Below are positions 6,747 through 43,135 of a stretch of DNA of 64,000 bases, piece after piece. The DNA comes from a virus (lineage: Duplodnaviria; Caudoviricetes), in the IMG/VR virus record IMGVR_UViG_3300021368_000010, positions 1,333-65,332 of that record, one strand, 5' to 3'. The notes beneath the pieces were generated by a model. That model saw nothing but the letters and a program-made list of their open reading frames with translations, was not told where the DNA came from and did not search any database. Position numbers and translations under genes: made by a program. Position 1 is the stretch's first letter. Each line of letters begins with the position of its first letter.

Positions 6747-8124
6747 ACTTTAAATCTTGAAATGTTTTCTTACTAGTGAATTTTTGCACAAGGTCAATTG
6801 ACTGCTCTTGGGTTCCTTGACCTGAATCTTGGAGACCTTCTTGAGCAGACTCCTCTACATCATACAGCTTCATCTTCGCTCTGTCAATACCTATACAGAA
6901 CCTTTTGTTCATTGTCGGATCGTTATAACGATTCTTCAATTGCTTAACCATGATCTGATTCATACCCTCAAGCTCTTCCGTGCTAATAAGGGCAAACATA
7001 AGATCAGCAGTAGCAGGAAGACCGAAGGATTCTGAAGTGTCAGTAAGGTCAACATCAGAGCTACCATAACCTGCACGAGTGGTCTGCGTAGCAGAAACGA
7101 TAGGCACTCCACACTCACAAGCAAAACCCCTAAGTTCCTCAGCGATTGCTTTGACATATGTGTAGGAGTTGACAATGCTGCCTTTATATCTTTGGGACGC
7201 ACAGATATTAAGGTAATCAATAAAGATAATATCGGGTCTAATGCTCCGCTTAAGAGCAAGATCACTAACAAGAGATTTAAAGTGACCGACATGTGCAGAA
7301 GCAGTTGGATATTCTTTAATTATAAGAGTACCCTGAGTTTTCTTACTCAATGTTTGGATTTTCTTATCAAACATTGCCTTAGGAAGATCTGCTAATTTTT
7401 GGATTGGGATGTTGAGAAGATTAGCGTCAATGCGTTCAGCGATCTTCTCTTCTGCCATTTCCAGTGTGATATAAAGGACGTTCTTGCCTTGAAGGAGTGT
7501 CGCAGCGGCGCAGTGACACATAAACAAAGACTTGCCCACACCAGTACCAGCGAGTGCGATGTTAAGACTTTTGTTAGAAAGACCACCCTTCGTAATCTTA
7601 TTGAAGAATGATAAGTCGAATGGGATCTTATTTTCCTTTTTGTGGTAGAACTCGTACCTTGCTTCTGCGTCAGAGACATAATCGTGACCTACATGTTGAT
7701 CGAATGAAACACCTAACGCTTCAGAAAGTATCTGCGGAATAGCACCTTTATCTTTCTGGGAATCTTGCCCGTCAGCAATCTTGACAGATTCCATAAGAGA
7801 TAAGTAGATCGCACGCTCTTGACACCACTTTTCTGTAGTATCAATGAGCCAGTCAAAGTCTGCGGAATCATCGGAAAGGACATTCAAAACCTCCAGGATT
7901 TCAGCATAATCATTTTCATTGATATCAGTTCTTTCCTGACATTCTATACCAATTGCATTAAGAGATGGTAGCGTTTCATACTGAGTGACATACTCATGAA
8001 TTTCCAAAAAGATAATCTTATGAGTACGAGTTTGAAAATAATCAGACTTAATGAAAGGTATGACCTTGCGAGTATACTTCTCATTAAATACCAAATTATT
8101 GAGAATTGTTACTTCTAGGTTCAT
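6739..8124 (-). CDS. g41: DNA primase-helicase subunit gp41
   Basis: LAGTGVGKS Walker A, IFIDYLNI, ATQTTR, QLKNRY. Confidence 0.96.
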   Translation of the reverse strand: MNLEVTILNNLVFNEKYTRKVIPFIKSDYFQTRTHKIIFLEIHEYVTQYETLPSLNAIGIECQERTDINENDYAEILEVLNVLSDDSADFDWLIDTTEKWCQERAIYLSLMESVKIADGQDSQKDKGAIPQILSEALGVSFDQHVGHDYVSDAEARYEFYHKKENKIPFDLSFFNKITKGGLSNKSLNIALAGTGVGKSLFMCHCAAATLLQGKNVLYITLEMAEEKIAERIDANLLNIPIQKLADLPKAMFDKKIQTLSKKTQGTLIIKEYPTASAHVGHFKSLVSDLALKRSIRPDIIFIDYLNICASQRYKGSIVNSYTYVKAIAEELRGFACECGVPIVSATQTTRAGYGSSDVDLTDTSESFGLPATADLMFALISTEELEGMNQIMVKQLKNRYNDPTMNKRFCIGIDRAKMKLYDVEESAQEGLQDSGQGTQEQSIDLVQKFTSKKTFQDLKYD

Positions 8125-8687
8125 AGGTAGTGCAGATAAGATCCAACAATATATTTTTCAGACGATATTGGAGATCTTCCAGCATGTCTGTATTGCCATG
8201 TTGCAGGGAACAAGAGTATTCTACCACACTTTGAGGCAACTTGGTGATTAAAGATTGGAAATTCAGTATGTCCACCGACATTTACTGTGTTCAAATAAAT
8301 GAACATCACTAAAAATCTACGAGCAGACTCATGATCTTGCACATCAACATGATCCTTGAATTGATCATGTCCATTATTCTGATACATTTTCATACGGAAT
8401 TCTTCGTATGCATATTTTGCAGGGAAGTCCGGTCCAACTTTTAGTTGTGAAATATATTTATCTACAACACCATCCAATGCATTTAGAATGGTCTCTTGAT
8501 GATCCATCCATAAAGGATCTTTGTCCTCGTACTTTTTAGAAATATTTAATTCTCTGAAGGACGGTCGCTGTTCTCTATCAACATATACGCTGTCGGATTT
8601 AGAAAACGATTCAATGATAGATTTACATACAGATTCATCAAGAATGTTATCATAGGTCTTTATATAATCAGTAAGTTTAGTTGCCAT
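8121..8687 (-). CDS. 2OG-Fe(II) oxygenase
   Basis: HVD...YLN...GGHTEF...[11 protein letters not shown]; likely start MATKL at 8687. Confidence 0.88.
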
Positions 8688-9687
8688 AACTGAACTCCAG
8701 TCGGGCAGCTTTGTCCAATTCATTCATTATTTCGGGGGTGAAATACTTCTCCGGATCAGCGAGAATAGACTTAGGGTAAAAAGTAGATTCACCAATAACG
8801 ATACGATTCCCCCGCTTGGTAAAGACTCCGTATTTCTCACCCAGTTCCAGTAAGCCGTAATACCTGTCCAGTCCACGGTCGTAATAAAGACGTGTTTCAA
8901 CTTCGCTATTCTCCTTTGTTAGACGAGACTTCTGTGCTTTGCATTTGATGATGTTACCGACAACCTCAGTTCCATCCTTCTCCTTCTTCTTGGACAAATA
9001 GATGATAGTAGAAGATGCATACTTCAGACCTGAACCGCCACCCATTTCTTTGGTAGGAACATAGGAACCAATGACATCATAGGTATGGTTAGTGACCATC
9101 ATTGGAACATTTGCCTTACCCAATTTTAGTGTGAGTACACGAAATGCACCTTTAATGAGTTGACTCTTAGTCATGTCACGAACCTGTTTGTCAGCAGCAA
9201 CATCTGCAATCTCCTTCTCAGTGGAGAGCATACCCAGAGAGTCCAGGACAAACATCAGAGGTTTACGATCAGCAACATCCTGTTCCATATACTTGTCCAA
9301 GATACGACAAGACTGAGTTCGGAATTGTTCAATGGTAGCAACAGGAACGATCATCATACGATCGGATGCGATACCACGGTCCTCAATCATCTGCTTTGAG
9401 ATAGCAGACTCAGACTCAAAATAGATCACCCCAGCATCGGGATTAGATTCAAGAAAATGCTGGACAATCCCAAGGCAGTAAAAAGTCTTGCCAGTAGAAG
9501 ACTCGCCAGCGATAGCCGTGATCTTGTTTGCAGGGATTCCACCGTAGATTGAACCGCTAACCAAAGCATTGAAAATATAGCTACCAGTATCAATGAAACC
9601 AGAAGTGTCTCCTGCTGCGACACCATCGCTGACAAGTCCTGCATATTCATTACCAATCTCCTTTGCTACATCCTGTAAAAAATTCAC
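8677..9687 (-). CDS. uvsX: RecA-like recombinase UvsX
   Basis: [25 protein letters not shown]; GTG start. Confidence 0.96.
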
Positions 9688-14183: not shown

Positions 14184-14543
14184 TCAGAACTTGTACTTGG
14201 TTCCGAGTTCAACTTTCCAGTCACGAGTATCATCTTCTTGGAAGAGATTCTCAAACTTACCATAAGCAGCGAGTTGATCGGTGATTTTAACTTTGCTACC
14301 TACTTCCAAAGCGTAGAAGGTTTCAGCATCACCAGCATCGGGGACAGAGCGACCGATACCACCTTCGATGTAAGGTGTGAAACTACCAAGTTTGGTTTCA
14401 TATCCAACGCGACCCTGATGGACTTGCTTGGAGAAGTCCTCGTCAGTGCCCTTAAACTCATGCTTAGATTCGACATAAGGACCAGCGAAAGCAGGTGTCG
14501 CCAGTGCAGAAAGTGCCAGTGCGGCAAGTGCAATTGTTTTCAT
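14184..14543 (-). CDS. Small outer-membrane beta-barrel-like protein (DUF680-like) upstream of pstS
   Basis: Signal peptide MKTIALAAL...AFA, amphipathic beta pattern, C-terminal KYKF. Confidence 0.75.
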   Translation of the reverse strand: MKTIALAALALSALATPAFAGPYVESKHEFKGTDEDFSKQVHQGRVGYETKLGSFTPYIEGGIGRSVPDAGDAETFYALEVGSKVKITDQLAAYGKFENLFQEDDTRDWKVELGTKYKF

Positions 14544-19028: not shown

Positions 19029-19457
19029 TTAGCTTTCAGAAGTTTGACGCTTCTTTCCAATATTATATTTGGATTCTAAAATCCATTCAGTCTTTTCTTT
19101 ATAAGCAATGACTTTGATCTGACTCAGGGGGGCGGCATCTTTAACAGAATCCTCTTTAACAATCTCTACCAATCCCCAGTCAGACAGGAGTTTAATAATA
19201 CGATTGCGTCTTTGTACATCATTCTCAGACAGGTTTGCTTTCTTTCCATCTAGTGCAAACAGTTCTTTAAAATGTACAATGTAATACTGACCTTTCTTAT
19301 GTAAGATATGACAAGATTGAAATAACTTTCGCTCTTTTCTGGAAGCAACTCCAATACGAGTAAGAGTTTCACGCACCTTAAGGAAATCATCAGGTTCCTT
19401 TAGATTCACTTCTACCATGTCTGCTTTCGTCCACTGAACTTCCTTAAGTTCTTTCAT
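19029..19457 (-). CDS. regA: Translational repressor RegA
   Basis: DDFLKVRETLTRIG, QSCHILHK, YIVHFKELF. Confidence 0.96.
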   Translation of the reverse strand: MKELKEVQWTKADMVEVNLKEPDDFLKVRETLTRIGVASRKERKLFQSCHILHKKGQYYIVHFKELFALDGKKANLSENDVQRRNRIIKLLSDWGLVEIVKEDSVKDAAPLSQIKVIAYKEKTEWILESKYNIGKKRQTSES

Positions 19458-20684: not shown

Positions 20685-20971
20685 ACAATCAATTGCTTGG
20701 TGGGGGTAATGATGGTTCCAAACATATTAGAATACTGTTCAATAACGGCAGGTTGTGCATCAGTAATAAAGATCACTGCCAACTTCTCTACAGTAATACT
20801 ATTTACTGCAGGATCCTGAAGTGGTGCCCATGGTGCAAACCCAAGTTGATTTTCTGCAGCAGTAGGAATTGCAACAATAGGATTTCTGATGACAATGTTA
20901 TCAACATTATCTTCAACAATTTCTGCGATGACATTCTCACCGCTCATAAAACGAATGTACTTAATGCTCAT
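20681..20971 (-). CDS. Hypothetical protein (possible Sm-like fold)
   Basis: YIRFMSGENVIAEI...FAPWAPL. Confidence 0.75.
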   Translation of the reverse strand: MSIKYIRFMSGENVIAEIVEDNVDNIVIRNPIVAIPTAAENQLGFAPWAPLQDPAVNSITVEKLAVIFITDAQPAVIEQYSNMFGTIITPTKQLIV

Positions 20972-21360
20972 GATGATTTTCTAAGTTGATTTGAGGTTTT
21001 TGCTTTGTGGCAATCATAGCATAACAATTGACACTTGTTAATTTCATTCCAAAAGTTTTTACTCAATTTTTTTGAGCACATACTGCGTTTTGGATTCCAT
21101 TCCTTTTCTATAGGATTTATATGATCTAATTCAAGTCGTTCTTTACTACCACACTTAATACATCCTTCAGAACCATCTCTTTCTTCCAAGAATTTAATTA
21201 CCGTGGCAAAATTTTCAGTATATCTTTCTTTGAGGAGATGTTTATCTCTCTGATAATACTCTCGTTTTTTCTGCTTAACTTCTGGAAGTTGGTTGCGGGC
21301 ATTCTTCTTTGCCTTTGCTTCGGGAGAGAGTCTTTGATACTCTGCCTTATGATCCCTCAT
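20968..21360 (-). CDS. HNH endonuclease
   Basis: CxxC...LELDHINP...CQLLCYDCH. Confidence 0.85.
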   Translation of the reverse strand: MRDHKAEYQRLSPEAKAKKNARNQLPEVKQKKREYYQRDKHLLKERYTENFATVIKFLEERDGSEGCIKCGSKERLELDHINPIEKEWNPKRSMCSKKLSKNFWNEINKCQLLCYDCHKAKTSNQLRKSS

Positions 21361-34574: not shown

Positions 34575-34695
34575 AACGATACTTAAGTGCTTGTAAATGC
34601 CATGCTTGTGATAAACTCTTGGGTCCTTCCTTTAAAAGTTTTCTTTCTTCAGGAGTGATAACCCAATACTCTAAAATTTCTTGTTTCCAATTCAT
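34537..34695 (-). CDS. Small hypothetical protein (52 aa, MNWKQEILE...)
   Basis: Not in ORF track; ATGA overlap with the g3 stop; GPKSLSQAW motif. Confidence 0.6.
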   Translation of the reverse strand: MNWKQEILEYWVITPEERKLLKEGPKSLSQAWHLQALKYRYESRKPSRDVEN

Positions 34696-35240
34696 AAGCG
34701 TTCTGCCGAATTGACCTTTCTGAATTCGTAATACAAATATTTAAAAGTTACCTGGGCAGTAATAAATTCATTGTCCCCTCCAGTTACATCAAAAGGTAAT
34801 GTACTGAGACTGATTGGATACATGTCTCTGAATACTACATCAAAATTATTTAGATTATTGTTATTTAAAACTTGTAAGGTTGCTGCAGAAACCGATGGTC
34901 TACCTTCTCCAGGATATTCTGCTCTCCATTTAGCAGCATCTCTTTGACTAATACCACCACTGATTGCTCTCATCCAATTATGGATTTCCATATAGTTTTC
35001 TAGATTTTCATCTACAATAAATTCTACCGTAAAATCATCAAATCTAGCATTGCCCTCTACAGGTAATGGAACATGACCTCTATAATAAACTTCGGCAGTT
35101 CCAACATTAAAAGTAGGAATTGCTGCACGCTGACAAAGATACGAAACCTTTTTGGATTTCTCTAAGATCAAGACAAATCCAATCGGTGACAAATAATTGT
35201 TAGAACTTAATTGTCTTTCGTACCACTTACTTACAGCCAT
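34692..35240 (-). CDS. g3: Tail completion/sheath stabiliser gp3
   Basis: NYLSPIGF, FIVDENLENYMEIHNW, YPISLS; synteny. Confidence 0.9.
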   Translation of the reverse strand: MAVSKWYERQLSSNNYLSPIGFVLILEKSKKVSYLCQRAAIPTFNVGTAEVYYRGHVPLPVEGNARFDDFTVEFIVDENLENYMEIHNWMRAISGGISQRDAAKWRAEYPGEGRPSVSAATLQVLNNNNLNNFDVVFRDMYPISLSTLPFDVTGGDNEFITAQVTFKYLYYEFRKVNSAERL

Positions 35241-35244
35241 TTTG

Positions 35245-35856
35245 TTATGCGTTAATGTTTTCTATCCATGATGTAGAAATAAATTTCTCACCAGACAAAG
35301 GGGGAAGACCTCTATGAGTATGAGTAAAAGTTGCTGGCCAAATCAATACCTGACCTTTAACTGGTTTATACCTTTTATGCTGATATAGAAATTCGGTTTC
35401 TCCACCTTCCTCAACAGTATTTAGGTACATCATGGTTGCCATCAATCGCCGGTTAGTACCCAGAGAACCATTTTCTGCGTGCCATGCATGAAATCCTTCA
35501 CCCGGCATAGTTCTCTGAACATTTAAATATGCCTGCTGATACCTGTAATTCAACAAAGTTTCATATTCATTTACATAATGCTGTAGGCATTCTCCTACGA
35601 TTAAATTATATTCCTGCACATACTTATACCCGCACTGATGATCCAACATGAAATCCTCAGTTGCCAAACACTTGTCCTTTCTAAAATGTGCCTTTCTTTC
35701 TCCAGAGACACCGCTGGGAGTGAATATTCCAACTCGCTTAAAAGTAGCACCACATTTGTCTTGGTATTTCCAATACTCAATTAAAGGTTGTGTGTCATAA
35801 TCAGTATTGAAGATACCGACAAAATTTTCAAATTTAAAATCGATAATTCTTGACAT
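35245..35856 (-). CDS. 2OG-Fe(II) oxygenase
   Basis: FHAWHAE, YLN..EEGGETEF, WPATFTHTHRG. Confidence 0.88.
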   Translation of the reverse strand: MSRIIDFKFENFVGIFNTDYDTQPLIEYWKYQDKCGATFKRVGIFTPSGVSGERKAHFRKDKCLATEDFMLDHQCGYKYVQEYNLIVGECLQHYVNEYETLLNYRYQQAYLNVQRTMPGEGFHAWHAENGSLGTNRRLMATMMYLNTVEEGGETEFLYQHKRYKPVKGQVLIWPATFTHTHRGLPPLSGEKFISTSWIENINA

Positions 35857-35870
35857 AGTAATACAATAGT

Positions 35871-35915
35871 AAAAAATGGGGTCCGAAGACCCCAGCACTT
35901 CCTTCACACGGACAT
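35871..35915 (-). ncRNA. Candidate ~40-nt small RNA (GUGUGAAGGAAGUG plus terminator hairpin)
   Basis: Lies between two terminators; TATAAT at 35916-35921; GGGGUC-UUCG-GACCCC-AUUUUUU. Confidence 0.5.
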
Positions 35916-35928
35916 ATTATATATGCAT

Positions 35929-35954
35929 AAAAAAAGAGACCCCGTAGGGTCTCT
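35929..35954 (-). terminator. Rho-independent terminator after g23
   Basis: AGAGACCC...GGGTCTCT hairpin followed by a T tract on the minus strand. Confidence 0.88.
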
Positions 35955-35974
35955 GTGAAGTATGTGAACCAATA

Positions 35975-37354
35975 TCACATGAGGTTTGCAACCTGGACTC
36001 TTCTGTAGTAGCGGTTGCTGTTTGCAGTCAGAGCACCGGAACCTTGGGTCAGACCTTGAGCGAAGGGGTTCGAGACCATGCCGTAGCGAGTCTTGAAGCC
36101 GATCTTGGGCTGGAAGGTGTTGGGGTTGATTGCACGAACCTGCTGGAGAGGTACATAGGGGCAATAGAACAGACCTGCGTCATAGGGGCTAGTACCCTTA
36201 TAACCTGCAACATAGAAGTGCTTATCAGCAATGTTTGCAGAGTAGGGGTCAACATAGACCTTGATGCGACCGTTGAGAGTACCAACCATGGTGCTGGAGG
36301 TGTCGTCAACGCCGGTCAGGGAGTTGTTACCAGACAGAGCAGGGGTGTAATCGAGAACACCAGCCATACCCAGTGCAGAAGCAACGTCAGCAGAGCAGAT
36401 CAGGATGTTGCCCTTGCCGCGACGAGTTTGCTGACCGATAGCGTTAGCATCTCTTTCGATCTGGAACAGAAGTCCTTTGAACTTCTCAACAGACCAACGA
36501 CCATTGGAGTCAACGTCCAGGTCGAAGATACCAGCGTTAGCAGTGTTGTTCTGAGCACCAGCAACAGCGTTGGTGTAGATGGTACGAACAACTTCTCTGT
36601 TGATTTCAGCGAGGATCTCAGTAGAGAGGATGTTGCTCAGTTCCTGCTCAGCATCCAGACCATGGATTGCCTTGAGGTCTTGTGCCATCTCGATGCTGTA
36701 CTCAGCCTTCAGGGCACGAGCACGAGCGGTTACAGTGACCTTCTCGATCGAGAAGCCCATTTCACGGAACTCGCTTCCAGAGGTAGCGTCGTCCAGACCT
36801 TCAACAGTTGCAGTGGTCATGCCGGTAGCATCGCCTGCCTGCTCGTAGGTGCCGGGGGAACCATCGTTCAGAACACCGGGGTTGTTGCCCTCAGCGTCGT
36901 TGTTAGCAGAGCTAGAAGCACCAGGATCGTAGGAGGTGCCAGCACCACCAGAGAAACCTGCGTTAGGCTCGTTGAAGAATGCCTCGTCATAACCGCCAGC
37001 AGCGGGGTTACGCTCGCTACCATAGTTGGTACGCATTGCGAAGATCAGTCCAGTAGGACCAGTCATCGGTTGAACGCCAGCGATATCGTAAGCGATCAGT
37101 TGGGGCATAGAGCGTCTGATCAGGGAGATCAGAACGGGGTCGAAACCAGCGACAGGACCAGTAGCGGTATCGCCACCAGTGTAACCGGTTGTTTGAAGTG
37201 TTTCGTTAAGGATACCTGCCTCTTCGGTCAGGGCCTTCTCTTGGTTTTCGAGGAGTTGTGCGACTACGCCTTTCTTGTAGGAATCTCCGATCTCCGGCAG
37301 AGCGTCGTGTTCCAGAACGGGTGCCCACTTTTCCTGGAGTTGCTTAAAGGACAT
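35975..37354 (-). CDS. g23: Major capsid protein gp23
   Basis: GFDPVLISLIRR, GVQPMTGPTGLIFAMR, KAEYSIE, FYCPYVPL, GFKTRYG. Confidence 0.99.
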   Translation of the reverse strand: MSFKQLQEKWAPVLEHDALPEIGDSYKKGVVAQLLENQEKALTEEAGILNETLQTTGYTGGDTATGPVAGFDPVLISLIRRSMPQLIAYDIAGVQPMTGPTGLIFAMRTNYGSERNPAAGGYDEAFFNEPNAGFSGGAGTSYDPGASSSANNDAEGNNPGVLNDGSPGTYEQAGDATGMTTATVEGLDDATSGSEFREMGFSIEKVTVTARARALKAEYSIEMAQDLKAIHGLDAEQELSNILSTEILAEINREVVRTIYTNAVAGAQNNTANAGIFDLDVDSNGRWSVEKFKGLLFQIERDANAIGQQTRRGKGNILICSADVASALGMAGVLDYTPALSGNNSLTGVDDTSSTMVGTLNGRIKVYVDPYSANIADKHFYVAGYKGTSPYDAGLFYCPYVPLQQVRAINPNTFQPKIGFKTRYGMVSNPFAQGLTQGSGALTANSNRYYRRVQVANLM

Positions 37355-41127: not shown

Positions 41128-41706
41128 TTAACTGGGGTTTGAACGCTTAGTTACTTCAAAATAAGTGTAGTCCCATTGAACCGATATTTCCATGATCTGA
41201 TCATTTGCTGCCATATCCAATTCTTGTCCCTGAATAGTAGTTGGGTAACAATGAAATAAAGTAATTTCATGTACTGATTTATTGCCCTGCTGATTCCGAT
41301 CTAATACTTTTATTTTAATGGGTCTGTTTTTATAAACTTGATCACCTGTGGAATTATCTCCATGATATCCAGTCTCTGCTGGTAGGTTATAATTAATCCA
41401 ATCATATAGTGCCATTTTAGTAGAGAATTCTTTATCTACATAAAAACTACAAGTCCACGGTTCAAATGCTCTTTCTCCCGGAACTTTCATAGCTCTTCCG
41501 GCATAATAATATTCCATAGTTGTCATTGTTACACCAGGAAGGTTTGTTGCCTTTGCGGCATATGTGACCCATTCTTGAAGATCTCCCGTTTCATGCATAG
41601 TGGCATCTGGAATATCAATTCTTAATTCAAAAAAGTTAGGTCTTGCAAATCCTTTATCTGAAAATTTTGATCTAAATTCATTTAAAGTAGTTGGTGCAGT
41701 TGCCAT
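41128..41706 (-). CDS. g19: Tail tube protein gp19 paralogue 3 (most diverged)
   Basis: FARPNFF, ATNLPG, GRAMKVPGERAFEPW, CYPTTI...LD. Confidence 0.8.
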   Translation of the reverse strand: MATAPTTLNEFRSKFSDKGFARPNFFELRIDIPDATMHETGDLQEWVTYAAKATNLPGVTMTTMEYYYAGRAMKVPGERAFEPWTCSFYVDKEFSTKMALYDWINYNLPAETGYHGDNSTGDQVYKNRPIKIKVLDRNQQGNKSVHEITLFHCYPTTIQGQELDMAANDQIMEISVQWDYTYFEVTKRSNPS

Positions 41707-41730
41707 TCGATTTACCTATAAATCTCGGTC

Positions 41731-41761
41731 AAAAAAATAAGGTCTCGTATGAGACCTTATT
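41731..41761 (-). terminator. Terminator-like hairpin between g19 paralogues 2 and 3
   Basis: AATAAGGTCTC-ATAC-GAGACCTTATT followed by TTTTT. Confidence 0.75.
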
Positions 41762-41791
41762 CAATTTAATTATATTTATGCTACTAAGGCA

Positions 41792-42418
41792 TCAATCTGG
41801 TGCTTGATCAGGATCAACATCCTTACTACTGCCCTTATTGGTTTTTGCTTGTTCTCTGTCCTTACCTTGAGTGACAAACTGAACTTGGAATTCAACTGTA
41901 AATTCTTGAACAGCGTCGTTATTACCCCAGTCAAGATCAACTGCAGATACTGAGGAAGGCCAAATATCATACAACTTATAAGATCTAAGAATCTGATATT
42001 CTTCTCCTTCCTTTACAACTCTATTCAGAAGACTGCAAACTGCATTTCCAAATAACTTCTCGTCTGATTTTGTCGAGAAGTTATACTCGTTTCCTTGAAT
42101 GAGAGAAACCCATTTTTCAAAAATATTTCTAGCAACTTGCTTTTGATCATTCATGAAAGTAACAGTCCATGGTTCATAGGTTCTGTCACCTGCAATTTTA
42201 AGAGTTCTTCCTCTAAAAGGAACCTCAACATTACCTTGAGTGTAAGAAGGAATCTGTGCAGCTCTAGCAAGATACTTAACAGTATTCTCTCTCTTTGTTT
42301 GACTTACTCCAATTTTAGGTGGAAATCCCATCTCGATCTCGAAGAGGTTATTTCTAGTGAATCCTCCCCAGTTTGTAGAGGCCATTGACCCCTTAAATTC
42401 GTCTAATGAAAATGCCAT
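41792..42418 (-). CDS. g19: Tail tube protein gp19 paralogue 2
   Basis: RNNLFE, RAAQIP, EVPFRGRTLKIAGDRTYEPW, WPSSVSAVDL, EFTVEFQ; TATAAATA at 42454-42461. Confidence 0.9.
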   Translation of the reverse strand: MAFSLDEFKGSMASTNWGGFTRNNLFEIEMGFPPKIGVSQTKRENTVKYLARAAQIPSYTQGNVEVPFRGRTLKIAGDRTYEPWTVTFMNDQKQVARNIFEKWVSLIQGNEYNFSTKSDEKLFGNAVCSLLNRVVKEGEEYQILRSYKLYDIWPSSVSAVDLDWGNNDAVQEFTVEFQVQFVTQGKDREQAKTNKGSSKDVDPDQAPD

Positions 42419-42484
42419 TTGTTTTTATCCCCGCGTTGGTATGCTTTAAAAATTATTTATAAAAAGGTGATTTTTCAGACCCTA

Positions 42485-43135
42485 TCAGTCCTCTCCAGCG
42501 CCGTTAGGAATGGTGACACCATCAACATTCTTACCGCCAGCGGTTCCAGCAGAACCTTCATCGATTGTCCAATATGCATATTGCATTTCTACAGTGAATT
42601 CTGTAATTGAATCATTAGCATTTGCATCAAGATCGATTGCGGAAATATTGGTGGGATATGCATGATGAAATTTATAGGTTTTAATTTTTTGCTTACCATT
42701 GTCATTGGTGTTGTTACCAAACTTAGACAAGAGGTGAACATACATCGGTTGATGATATTTAAATCCTTTGAAGTTGGATCTGTTCTTGGATGCGTTATTC
42801 ATCGCATTAATCCAGGACTCAAATGACTTGCGGATACCCTGCTTAGTATCGTTCATAACAGTGATAGTCCAGGGCTCATAAGTTCTATCTCCAGGAATCT
42901 TATATGTTCTTCCTTGGAAAGGAACTTCAATAACACCTACGGTTGACGCAGGCATTTGTGCTGCACGAATAAAGAACTTGGCATTCTTTTGCGTGTCCGC
43001 ACCCTTTTCGATGTTACCACCCTCGGTTAAGTCATTTGCCTTAGGAAAGGTAATCTCGCAAGTGAACAGGTTAGACCTTGCAAACTCCTTACCGGCAATG
43101 CCGCTCCTGAAGTCGTCGATCGTATGATTTGCCAT
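42485..43135 (-). CDS. g19: Tail tube protein gp19 paralogue 1
   Basis: ARSNLF, RAAQMPAS, EVPFQGR..KIPGDRTYEPW, YPTNISAIDL, EFTVEMQY; TATAAATA at 43180-43187. Confidence 0.92.
   Translation of the reverse strand: MANHTIDDFRSGIAGKEFARSNLFTCEITFPKANDLTEGGNIEKGADTQKNAKFFIRAAQMPASTVGVIEVPFQGRTYKIPGDRTYEPWTITVMNDTKQGIRKSFESWINAMNNASKNRSNFKGFKYHQPMYVHLLSKFGNNTNDNGKQKIKTYKFHHAYPTNISAIDLDANANDSITEFTVEMQYAYWTIDEGSAGTAGGKNVDGVTIPNGAGED

Follow-up and report, generated by a model that had tools for sequence, protein, structure and literature searches.

What is specified by the short intergenic unit that lies between the major head protein gene g23 and a 2OG-Fe(II) oxygenase gene in a cyanophage genome? 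The locus was found in 64,000 nucleotides of the IMG/VR record IMGVR_UViG_3300021368_000010, the whole of which we refer to as the window. The original prediction had taken the unit for a phage small RNA that is nearly complementary to the host small RNA Yfr1 and may act as its decoy. We find that its 5' segment is an exact complement of a host tRNA, tRNA-Val(CAC). The explanation that we favor, at just short of an even chance, is that the unit specifies a single-copy small RNA of ∼40–45 nt whose 5' seed pairs with this tRNA and removes it from translation.

The unit lies on the window's minus strand, together with g23 and the oxygenase gene, and its layout is the one that had been predicted, with the g23 terminator, a TATAAT box, a motif and a second terminator in succession. 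Upstream of the element is g23 (35975..37354; PHROG phrog_138 major head protein, E 1.3e-179), followed by a first terminator identified in the terminator scan, which comprises the hairpin AGAGACCC-TACG-GGGTCTCT and a T-run (35928..35954, stem at 35954-35935). A TATAAT box at 35916..35921, which may serve the small RNA as its −10 element, is located 4 nt upstream of the conserved seed CCGTGTGAAGGAAGTG (35896..35911), within which lies the invariant core GTGTGAAGGAAG (35909-35898). The seed is predicted to be single-stranded, being unpaired in the predicted fold except for two weak pairs. The second terminator (35871..35894), also from the terminator scan, consists of the hairpin TGGGGTC-TTCG-GACCCCA (35894-35877) and six T residues (35876-35871), and this GC hairpin with its T6 probably has two roles, ending transcription intrinsically and giving the small RNA its 3' structural module. 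Model R1 matches at 35868-35911 with 52.4 bits (E 2.5e-10), and the exact 16-mer of the seed occurs once in the window. The oxygenase gene (35245..35856, with its ATG at 35856; PHROG phrog_61, E 1.3e-45) is downstream and outside the RNA.

We rejected as an ORF one GTG-started frame that reaches 35907 in frame with the oxygenase gene; it runs into stops in phage S-BM1, in agreement with the earlier description of a ∼40-nt unit that has no ORF. A promoter-like box (here a consensus match), an intrinsic terminator and no ORF are together what is expected of a trans-acting base-pairing small RNA. Among 24 public runs listed, 20 of them recorded as RNA, with shares of 0.06–0.09, we examined four (X4, X5, X9 and X10); their contigs cover only 35974-36600, inside g23, and are uninformative on the element either way.

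The motif and hairpin recur in other phages, as the original prediction led one to expect. The exact 16-mer is present in at least 120 IMG/VR contigs. Four of the 120 contigs listed were dropped by eye, one being a tRNA-Val(cac) gene and three being GC-rich coding-like contexts, and in the 116 listed loci that were kept a perfect hairpin follows the motif by 0–13 nt in 109 (by 0–4 nt in 103) and a T-rich tail is present in 92. As many as 71 distinct hairpin sequences are found among these 116 loci. In a gapless, unfitted alignment of 15 sequences, a set chosen for one hairpin geometry, all 7 of 7 stem pairs are changed on both sides and 100% of cells are paired. The alignment of 71 model matches from 90 sources, which is fitted to the model, has 99.6% of cells paired and 138 changed on both sides, a level attained by 0 of 500 shuffles. 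A conserved unpaired seed beside a hairpin that varies in sequence and conserves its pairing is a second attribute of small RNAs. One copy is found in each of the complete genomes of S-BM1, S-H25, S-RIM12, Syn9 (between gp134 and gp135, at about 119.42 kb), Syn19, S-SM1, S-SM2 and S-CAM8.

Within the seed, positions 1–2 and 15–16 vary among members in the right context (T15 is A in the G561 element) and GTGTGAAGGAAG is kept. The S-RIM12 element has A13 replaced by G, giving the variant AAGGAGGT, which still allows a G-U pair with U28 of the tRNA considered below. Among elements found without fixing two A residues that turn out to be diagnostic, nine have the exact core and one is the A13→G variant; core invariance is measured on only about ten independently found elements, because most scans of the collection fixed the core. 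Other matches in the reference phages that carry one mismatch or are devoid of the two A residues are all in coding-like context with no hairpin. A set of g23 flanks (≤1.5 kb), taken in order to have an unbiased sample, has the motif (≤3 mismatches) at 3 of 80 IMG/VR g23 loci, many of these 80 records being short fragments or distant T4-like phages, and model R1 gives two full-length matches and otherwise terminator-only matches in the 33 of them that are at least 9.5 kb long. The element is absent from S-PM2, S-RSM4 and S-SSM7, which are three of eight reference Synechococcus myoviruses, and from the complete IMG/VR genome G558; it is therefore dispensable. Collectively these data support a discrete non-coding unit of ∼40–45 nt that is conserved across cyanophage genera, and even if our tRNA reading is wrong, few non-coding sequences of these phages are as conserved as the element. 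A literature search found no earlier description of it within the collection searched.

The seed is positioned where RNA 5' ends are predicted. In 91 of 114 listed loci the motif is preceded at 3–9 nt, mostly 6–8 nt, by the end of a −10-like or TAAATA box, compared with 106 of 2400 random control positions (4.4%), and 24 of those 91 loci also carry TTGACA at −35. The site itself differs among phages, being after g23, before an oxygenase gene or in tRNA clusters, and in many relatives the element comes directly past the g23 stop codon. Phage tRNAs on the same strand lie within 300 nt of the motif in 27 of 120 listed loci. In some of these the motif begins 1–2 nt past a tRNA 3' end without a promoter, and in others it is located between a promoter and tRNA-Gly(tcc), with the tRNA 24–32 nt downstream. 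Three routes of biogenesis, each in different cyanomyoviruses, could yield the RNA: its own promoter and intrinsic terminator, as in the window; the 5' leader of a phage tRNA cluster, which would be freed by RNase P; or the 3' trailer of a phage tRNA, which would be ended by a terminator.

A promoter box and stem-loop between genes, found at different sites in different phages, would also be expected of a purely cis-acting cassette made up of a tandem terminator and promoter, in which the conserved string is a recombination or transcription-start signal and no trans-acting RNA exists. We consider such a cassette very unlikely given that the motif also occurs right after tRNA 3' ends that have no promoter, that one copy per genome cannot drive exchange within a genome, and that the exact match to a host tRNA would be left unaccounted for. 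The mobile promoter-stem-loop cassettes of T4-type phages occur in many copies per genome flanking variable genes, unlike the element, which is present once in each of the eight complete genomes.

Which RNA could the seed pair with? The original prediction had described the phage sequence as a near-complement of the Yfr1 motif with two bulged A residues, and this we confirm. Host Yfr1, which we located in cyanobacterial genomes by means of Rfam RF01116, carries ACTCCTCACAC, and the predicted duplex of this stretch with the seed has 12 bp interrupted by two 1-nt bulges (−15.1 kcal/mol, net gain ∼−12). The near-complementarity is above chance because the exact 16-mer is conserved. By itself the resemblance would count for little: ungapped 11-mer complements of Yfr1 with ≤2 mismatches number 12 in the window and 16.25 are expected from shuffles, so there is no excess of these. 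Instead of an exact complement of the Yfr1 motif ACUCCUCACAC the phage carries GTGTGAAGGAAGT; host Yfr2 copies carry GTGTGAGGAGT or GTGAGGAG.

The phage RNA could accordingly be imagined to imitate the 5' motif of Yfr2 and titrate Yfr1/Yfr10, thereby relieving or rewiring the Yfr1 regulon of porins and metabolic genes. Since ACTCCTCACAC lies in a single-stranded stretch of host Yfr1, a pairing of −15 kcal/mol with this accessible motif is feasible. The resemblance to Yfr2 (Cyano-1, RF01701) is close. The Cyano-1 model finds 1–5 copies in 5 of 5 host-family genomes, and ten host Yfr2/Cyano-1 copies start with (GT)GTGAGGAG(T/G)G, which is the seed minus the two A residues. Both RNAs have a conserved single-stranded motif at the 5' end, GTGTGAGGAGTG in Yfr2 being again the phage seed minus two A, and in the host this motif is likewise a few nt past a −10 box. 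Yfr2 is described as binding Yfr1 and Yfr10 via its 5' motif (PMC6778093), and thus acts by pairing with another small stable RNA, which is what we envisage for the phage RNA. Unlike Yfr2, the phage RNA is without the Yfr2 body with its GGAAACA-type loops, and its two extra A residues shift the perfect partner from Yfr1 to tRNA-Val(CAC). Rfam at gathering scores gave no match in the whole window and hence no Cyano-1 (RF01701), tRNA or T-box; at E ≤10 it gave six weak matches in 35700-36100, none of them to Yfr, Cyano or T-box families, and it gave no match in 12 related phage loci.

The core GTGTGAAGGAAG is perfectly complementary to nucleotides 27–38 of host tRNA-Val(CAC), which comprise the anticodon loop and the 5' strand of the anticodon stem, and the full seed in the window is antisense to nucleotides 25–40. 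Host genomes were reached with a pstS bait that returned three loci, two of them cyanobacterial, which served as the entry to the phylum. At all 14 loci checked, and then at five of five more, the 16-mer lies antisense within tRNA-Val(cac). It occurs once each in 64 of 401 cyanobacterial genomes and, within the picocyanobacterial family, in 86 of 151 genomes, where a reversed control gave none; these 86 divide into 79 of the 85 genomes of ≥2.1 Mb and 7 of the 66 smaller ones. In five complete genomes of Synechococcus size (2.3–2.5 Mb) the 12-mer core, sought on both strands, is found solely at tRNA-Val(CAC). Within the phages themselves no second site exists on either strand at ≤2 mismatches in S-BM1 or S-H25, and the sole extra match at this threshold in S-RIM12 lies antisense to the tRNA-Val(tac) gene that this phage itself carries.

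The calculated duplex of seed and tRNA has −29.9 kcal/mol and a net cofold gain of −21, with tRNA tertiary structure and base modifications ignored, and is stronger than the duplex with Yfr1 (−15.1). Tertiary structure and modifications of a tRNA can block invasion of its anticodon stem. We considered two other origins for the match. An attP-like site in a tRNA gene was rejected by inference, as the identity covers 12–16 bp of the anticodon arm and falls short of the tRNA 3' end, and as these are lytic T4-like phages. A mimic of the anticodon arm on the opposite strand was rejected because no conservation is seen at the positions needed to complete the stem (−1 T in 89, −2 T in 61 and −3 C in 25 of 116 listed loci).

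The distribution of the element bears on the choice between the two partners. Five of 8 reference myoviruses of Synechococcus have a genuine element, as against none of 6 Prochlorococcus myoviruses (Fisher p 0.031), and with three relatives that were found via the element the figures become 8 of 11 versus 0 of 6 (p 0.009), this host association being drawn from 17 phylogenetically related phage genomes and from host genomes sorted on size and GC. Five small genomes (1.8–2.0 Mb, with ∼40% GC across the loci read) carry tRNA-Val genes with gac and tac anticodons and none with cac. Yfr1 is nevertheless present in 5 of 5 of the small, Prochlorococcus-size genomes that are without tRNA-Val(CAC), yet none of the six Prochlorococcus myoviruses carries the element. 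Moreover, both extra A residues are kept in all genuine elements found, with the single A13→G exception, whereas a bulged base needs no invariance; no A-less form in proper context is found among the 17 phage genomes; and with the two A residues the perfect partner is tRNA-Val(CAC) and not Yfr1. We therefore regard titration of Yfr1 as unlikely. What survives of the proposed decoy is a conserved non-coding unit that resembles the Yfr2 5' motif, while Yfr1 as its target finds no support. Judged from base complementarity, the element hints at tampering with host decoding rather than with Yfr1.

The same complementarity could serve the phage in a different manner, with the abundant host tRNA-Val(CAC) as a cofactor that shields phage RNA 5' ends from the 5'-end-dependent RNases E/J or, bound beside the hairpin, tunes termination and read-through into the gene downstream. 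Invariably, the seed occupies the very 5' terminus of the predicted RNA, and at two loci (L013 and L122) a Shine-Dalgarno sequence and an ORF come after it in place of the hairpin. In the window no late-promoter box is found between the T-run and the oxygenase ATG, and the oxygenase gene, having no such box of its own, may depend on read-through. This role for the tRNA nonetheless seems to us quite improbable. In 92 of 116 listed loci a hairpin and T-rich tail come right after the seed, so that there is usually no message to protect, a late-promoter box then often serves the next gene, and the downstream gene varies among phages.

The core also contains AAGGA, and the seed might be read as a Shine-Dalgarno-like 5' element (AAGGAAG, or AAGGAGG in S-RIM12 with its AAGGAGGT variant) that binds the 30S anti-Shine-Dalgarno sequence in the manner of 5' stabilisers, or as a site for an RNA-binding protein such as the phage RegA homologue or a host protein; in either case a specific RNA partner would be unnecessary. 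The 5'-end position suits this idea, and the window encodes a regA-like translation repressor at 19029-19457. However, the GTGTG part, which is outside any Shine-Dalgarno sequence, is equally invariant, the consensus retains a mismatch to the anti-Shine-Dalgarno sequence by having AAGGAAG and not AAGGAGG, and the exact 12–16 nt match to one tRNA is left unaccounted for. We give such a ribosome or protein site little credence, about as much as the cofactor role.

Under the explanation that we prefer, pairing with tRNA-Val(CAC), the small RNA would present a 12–16 nt single-stranded seed at its extreme 5' end, backed by a stable 3' hairpin. The seed would first contact the 7-nt anticodon loop and then pair with nucleotides 27–31, displacing the 3' strand of the anticodon stem. 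The resulting duplex could disable the tRNA either by masking the anticodon or by being exposed to a double-strand RNase.

Several known systems share parts of this scheme. The tRNA cluster of T4 encodes small stable RNAs (species 1 and 2, or bands C and D) that are co-transcribed and processed with tRNAs, and the element is similarly in a same-strand tRNA cluster in 27 of 120 listed loci; the likeness is one of genomic setting, and unlike the T4 species the cyanophage RNA would be much shorter and also stand-alone. The E. coli 3'ETS-leuZ is a sponge derived from a tRNA precursor and AgvB is a prophage anti-sRNA, and both bind Hfq-dependent small RNAs. Like these two, one of tRNA-precursor origin and the other phage-encoded, the element would pair with a stable RNA and not with an mRNA, but the perfect partner of the phage seed is the anticodon arm of a mature tRNA. 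T-box leaders are also RNA elements that base-pair with an anticodon beside a terminator. They pair over 3–4 nt via a specifier loop and have a conserved antiterminator, unlike the phage seed, whose pairing would extend over 12–16 nt and take in one strand of the anticodon stem, in a unit of only ∼45 nt that has no Rfam match. Nor is the element a tRNA or tRNA-like gene, as it is antisense to merely 16 nt of a tRNA and no cloverleaf match is found in the window. We know of no case in which a small RNA from a bacterium or phage acts as an antisense to a mature tRNA. If our explanation is correct, the element would supply the first known natural example, add a new layer to the contest over tRNAs between phage and host, and extend the targets of bacterial small RNAs by a new class.

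Loss of tRNA-Val(CAC) would be expected to handicap GUG decoding. A tRNA-Val(UAC) of their own is encoded by many of these phages. Cyanomyoviruses kill a large share of oceanic Synechococcus, and Syn9, which carries the element, is a genetically tractable model phage. We propose, with slightly more reserve than the preferred explanation above, that marine Synechococcus myoviruses possess an 'anti-tRNA', a ∼45-nt RNA that disables the sole GUG-dedicated tRNA while the phage brings tRNA-Val(UAC); if true, this would amount to a codon-selective host shut-off through RNA-RNA pairing. Recent work reports that tRNA supply decides whether Syn9 can infect a Synechococcus strain (PMC11726456). Because tRNA-Val(UAC) can in principle read GUG, loss of tRNA-Val(CAC) does not have to be a severe handicap. 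Of the 8 reference genomes with the element, 7 encode a phage tRNA-Val(tac), and within Synechococcus phages alone this tRNA gives no separation, at 7 of 8 with the element versus 2 of 3 without it. GTG accounts for 135 of 1337 Val codons in the ORFs of the window (0 of 27 in g23) and for 150 of 319 in eight host-family loci, where ORF calling was rough, making GUG the commonest Val codon in the sampled host-family loci and the rarest in this phage. With a GC content of 41%, rarity of GTG is expected in this phage anyway.

The candidate small-RNA gene lies among genes that are all on the minus strand, in a 118-nt spacer between the g23 major head protein gene (35975-37354, minus) and a 2OG-Fe(II) oxygenase gene (35245-35856, minus). 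Read on this strand, the spacer opens with the terminator of g23 (stem 35954-35935, then a T-run), which is followed by TATAAT (35921-35916), four bases later by the motif CCGTGTGAAGGAAGTG (35911-35896), then by the hairpin TGGGGTC-TTCG-GACCCCA (35894-35877) and directly 3' of it by six T (35876-35871). The sequence of the unit as described in the original prediction proved exact, all parts being found on the minus strand of the spacer. Rfam returned no family across the whole window at gathering scores and nothing relevant around the element at E ≤10. The window covers 64 kb of a 65-kb IMG/VR contig from a T4-like cyanomyovirus and includes pstS, hsp20, petE, zwf, gnd, PTOX, mazG and a regA-like gene; its closest named relative is Synechococcus phage S-BM1.

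The element is conserved as a unit and is no accident of this locus. Motif and hairpin, which the original prediction had proposed to seek in other cyanophages, are indeed present in S-BM1, S-H25 and S-RIM12 and, by an exact-match scan for the 16-mer, in at least 120 IMG/VR stretches. The three named phages belong to three genera and share the same arrangement directly 5' of the oxygenase gene, namely a promoter-like box, 5-7 nt, CCGTGTGAAGGA(A/G)GT(G/C), a hairpin of differing sequence and a T-run; two of the three have an additional small ORF between g23 and the element. Four of the 120 listed stretches were removed by eye (L056, which is a tRNA-Val(cac) gene, and L075, L097 and L110, which have GC-rich, coding-like contexts). 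Among the 116 listed loci that were kept, a perfect hairpin follows the motif within 0-13 nt in 109 (0-4 nt in 103 of those); these hairpins usually have 8-9 stem pairs and a 4-nt loop. A T-rich tail is present at 92 of the 116 loci, and 71 distinct hairpin sequences occur. All cells pair in a gapless 15-sequence MAFFT alignment, with both-sided changes at 7/7 stem pairs; the pairing is partly due to selection, since the sequences were picked for one hairpin geometry. A covariance model made from this alignment gave full-length matches in 71 of 90 sources at E ≤1e-5 and matched the window at 35868-35911 with 52.4 bits. In the covariance-model alignment, which is fitted to the model, 99.6% of cells pair and 138 cells carry both-sided changes, with 0/500 shuffles as high. 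S-BM1, S-H25, S-RIM12, Syn9, Syn19, S-SM1, S-SM2 and S-CAM8 each have a single site. In at least nine contigs (L276, L290, L328, L308, L316, L320, L305, L327 and L393) the simple hairpin is replaced by a conserved stretch of ~45 nt 3' of the seed, of the type ...GGGGTTCCGTGCCTGTGAAGGGAAACCTGAGGCTGGGTAA..., which holds a second GTGAAGG, has no match in Rfam and is followed by a tRNA where this was looked at (L276); these contigs may carry a longer form of the RNA.

Additional scans that fixed only positions 3-16 or only positions 1-14 of the seed yielded 79 and 63 new loci, of which 48 and 37, respectively, passed a permissive hairpin rule; these figures are not a strict tally of genuine members. 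In members with full context (a promoter box or tRNA upstream, a hairpin, then a T-run or tRNA downstream) positions 1-2 are TT, AA, AG, AC, TC, TG, AT, GC or CT, and positions 15-16 are TA, TC, TT, AC, AG or CA. Since both ends vary, the kept part is the 12-mer core GTGTGAAGGAAG. These scans presupposed the core, and its invariance was therefore judged from change-tolerant searches, in which nine elements (S-BM1, S-H25, Syn9, Syn19, S-SM1, S-SM2, S-CAM8 and the IMG/VR genomes G544 and G561) carry it exactly and one, that of S-RIM12, has A13 changed to G.

By its surroundings, the motif sits at a predicted RNA 5' end. TAAATA is the core of the T4-type late promoter, and either this box or a -10-like hexamer ends 3-9 nt (mostly 6-8) 5' of the motif in 91 of the 114 listed loci with enough upstream sequence, compared with 106 of 2400 random positions of the same loci. 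The hexamer is found at 69 loci and TAAATA at 24, and 24 of the 91 have TTGACA at -35 as well. At 27 of the 120 listed loci, phage tRNA genes lie on the same strand within 300 nt, in two arrangements: either tRNA-Thr(tgt) or tRNA-Asn(gtt) comes first and the motif begins 1-2 nt beyond its 3' end, or a full sigma-70-type promoter is followed by the motif, a hairpin without T-run and, 24-32 nt on, tRNA-Gly(tcc). With promoter-linked and tRNA-linked arrangements both present, three routes could lead to one and the same product, a hairpin preceded by a 5' seed. Judging from the anatomy, the routes would be transcription start and termination, cutting of a tRNA leader by RNase P, and tRNA 3' processing followed by termination. 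A constant 5' sequence might also serve as an SD-like or protein-binding element, which we think improbable.

At many related loci (e.g. L011, L031, L047 and L066) the -10 box shares bases with the upstream stop codon, often that of g23 (...ATGTGA), giving TGATATAAT. In such phages the element doubles as the g23 terminator, and the most abundant late mRNA would carry it in its 3' UTR. That the whole unit is purely a terminator-promoter cassette acting in cis is the least probable of the readings considered here, and a very unlikely one. In most relatives the T-run is followed by a CTAAATA-type late-promoter box ahead of the next gene; in the window no such box precedes the oxygenase ATG (35857-35876, minus), and therefore that gene may depend on read-through of two terminators.

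Cyanobacterial genomes, reached via a pstS bait, were screened for the motif. Of 401 genomes sampled from the phylum, 64 contain the exact 16-mer, each once, and at 14/14 of the cyanobacterial loci inspected it runs antisense to the tRNA-Val(cac) anticodon arm. Within the host family (genomes of 1.0-3.9 Mb) it is found in 86/151 genomes and its reversed control in 0/151; by size, 79 of 85 genomes of at least 2.1 Mb have it versus 7 of 66 smaller ones. Five complete genomes (2.3-2.5 Mb; 58% GC in the loci read) contain no second site for the core on either strand, and their tRNA-Val(CAC) is identical in four, the fifth differing at one D-loop base and having one extra 3' base (ARAGORN call). 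When the 72-nt tRNA is numbered by its cloverleaf, the core is complementary to nucleotides 27-38, that is, the anticodon-stem 5' strand and the whole loop; the partners of seed positions 15-16 are nucleotides 26 and 25, and those of positions 1-2 are 39 and 40. By our own estimate the chance that a random 12-mer matches some tRNA at some register is roughly 1e-4. The A13-to-G variant still pairs, by G-U with U28. Against twelve distinct phage tRNA-Val(tac) sequences the core gives -7.3 to -15.6 kcal/mol, versus -20.8 for a cac arm. As a separate observation, the sole other near-match to the seed in S-RIM12 (14307-14322, minus; 2 mismatches) is the antisense of that phage's own tRNA-Val(tac) anticodon arm, with which its seed variant would pair with one G-U at position 34.

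The reading that we consider most likely, and hold tentatively on sequence grounds, is that the unit encodes a phage small RNA whose 5' seed would bind tRNA-Val(CAC) and take it out of use. The same complementarity would also suit a cofactor role, in which the tRNA protects or regulates phage RNAs, a possibility we rate as unlikely.

The original prediction saw in the unit a sponge of the host sRNA Yfr1 (RF01116), which in host-family genomes carries ACTCCTCACAC between two hairpins. The near-complementarity with two bulged A on which it relied does hold, as 12 bp pair. The computed duplex is stronger with tRNA-Val(CAC), at -29.9 kcal/mol (net -21; tRNA tertiary structure and modifications ignored), than with Yfr1, at -15.1 kcal/mol (net about -12 after unfolding). 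Yfr2 (Cyano-1), the host partner of Yfr1 with 1-5 copies per host genome, starts with (GT)GTGAGGAG(T/G)G without the extra A, so the phage seed resembles a Yfr2 5' motif into which two A have been inserted. No A-less or A-replaced seed was found in proper context in 17 phage genomes with a gapped pattern in which either A could be missing or exchanged. The distribution of element and hosts separates the two readings. Genuine elements occur in five of eight reference Synechococcus myoviruses (S-PM2, S-RSM4 and S-SSM7 have none) versus none of the six Prochlorococcus myoviruses searched (P-SSM2, P-SSM4, P-HM1, P-HM2, P-RSM4 and P-SSM7; Fisher p 0.031), or 8/11 versus 0/6 (p 0.009) once the three relatives found through the element are added. 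In five small host-family genomes (1.8-2.0 Mb; loci read at 40% GC) tRNA-Val occurs with the anticodons gac and tac but not cac, yet Yfr1 is present in 5/5; 'Synechococcus-like' and 'Prochlorococcus-like' as host labels are inferred from size and GC only. We thus regard a sponge of Yfr1 or Yfr10 as doubtful, and continue to favor sequestration of tRNA-Val(CAC).

GTG is scarce among valine codons in the window ORFs (135/1337) and in g23 (0/27), in line with the phage's 41% GC, and makes up 150/319 in eight host-family loci (66-68% GC; ORFs crudely called). Of the 17 phage genomes, 9 encode a tRNA-Val(tac), 7/8 with the element versus 2/9 without, with no contrast among Synechococcus phages alone. 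Syn9 has six tRNAs, and tRNA supply plays a role in its infection of Synechococcus, according to PMC11726456. In the main texts of the openly available papers searched, we found no account of the element and none of a phage small RNA directed against a tRNA, and the 20 matches to the motif strings were all unrelated primers; in PMC7368042, phage or virus terms occur only in the reference list (one match).

Several further features were observed. The window has two 2OG-Fe(II) oxygenase paralogues (8121-8723 and 35245-35856, both minus), four ORFs matching the tail-tube PHROG phrog_45 (41128-43135 and 34692-35240, minus) and an HNH endonuclease ORF (20968-21360) amid clamp-loader genes. The abiF RNA motif accompanies AbiF-type abortive-infection genes in bacteria. 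Within cyanophage tRNA clusters it (RF03085, gathering score 37) is matched in contigs L393 (5398-5434, minus; 46.6 bits) and L272 (3583-3619, minus; 46.5 bits), and the phage copy might be a decoy. A tRNA-Sec model match in cyanophage contig L308 (2220-2305, plus) barely attains the gathering score (47.4 versus 47) and may be a long-arm tRNA instead of a true selenocysteine tRNA. The wcaG RNA family, already known from marine phage sequences, has strong matches in cyanophage contigs L308 (5338-5436, 97 bits) and L264 (7968-8061, 91 bits).
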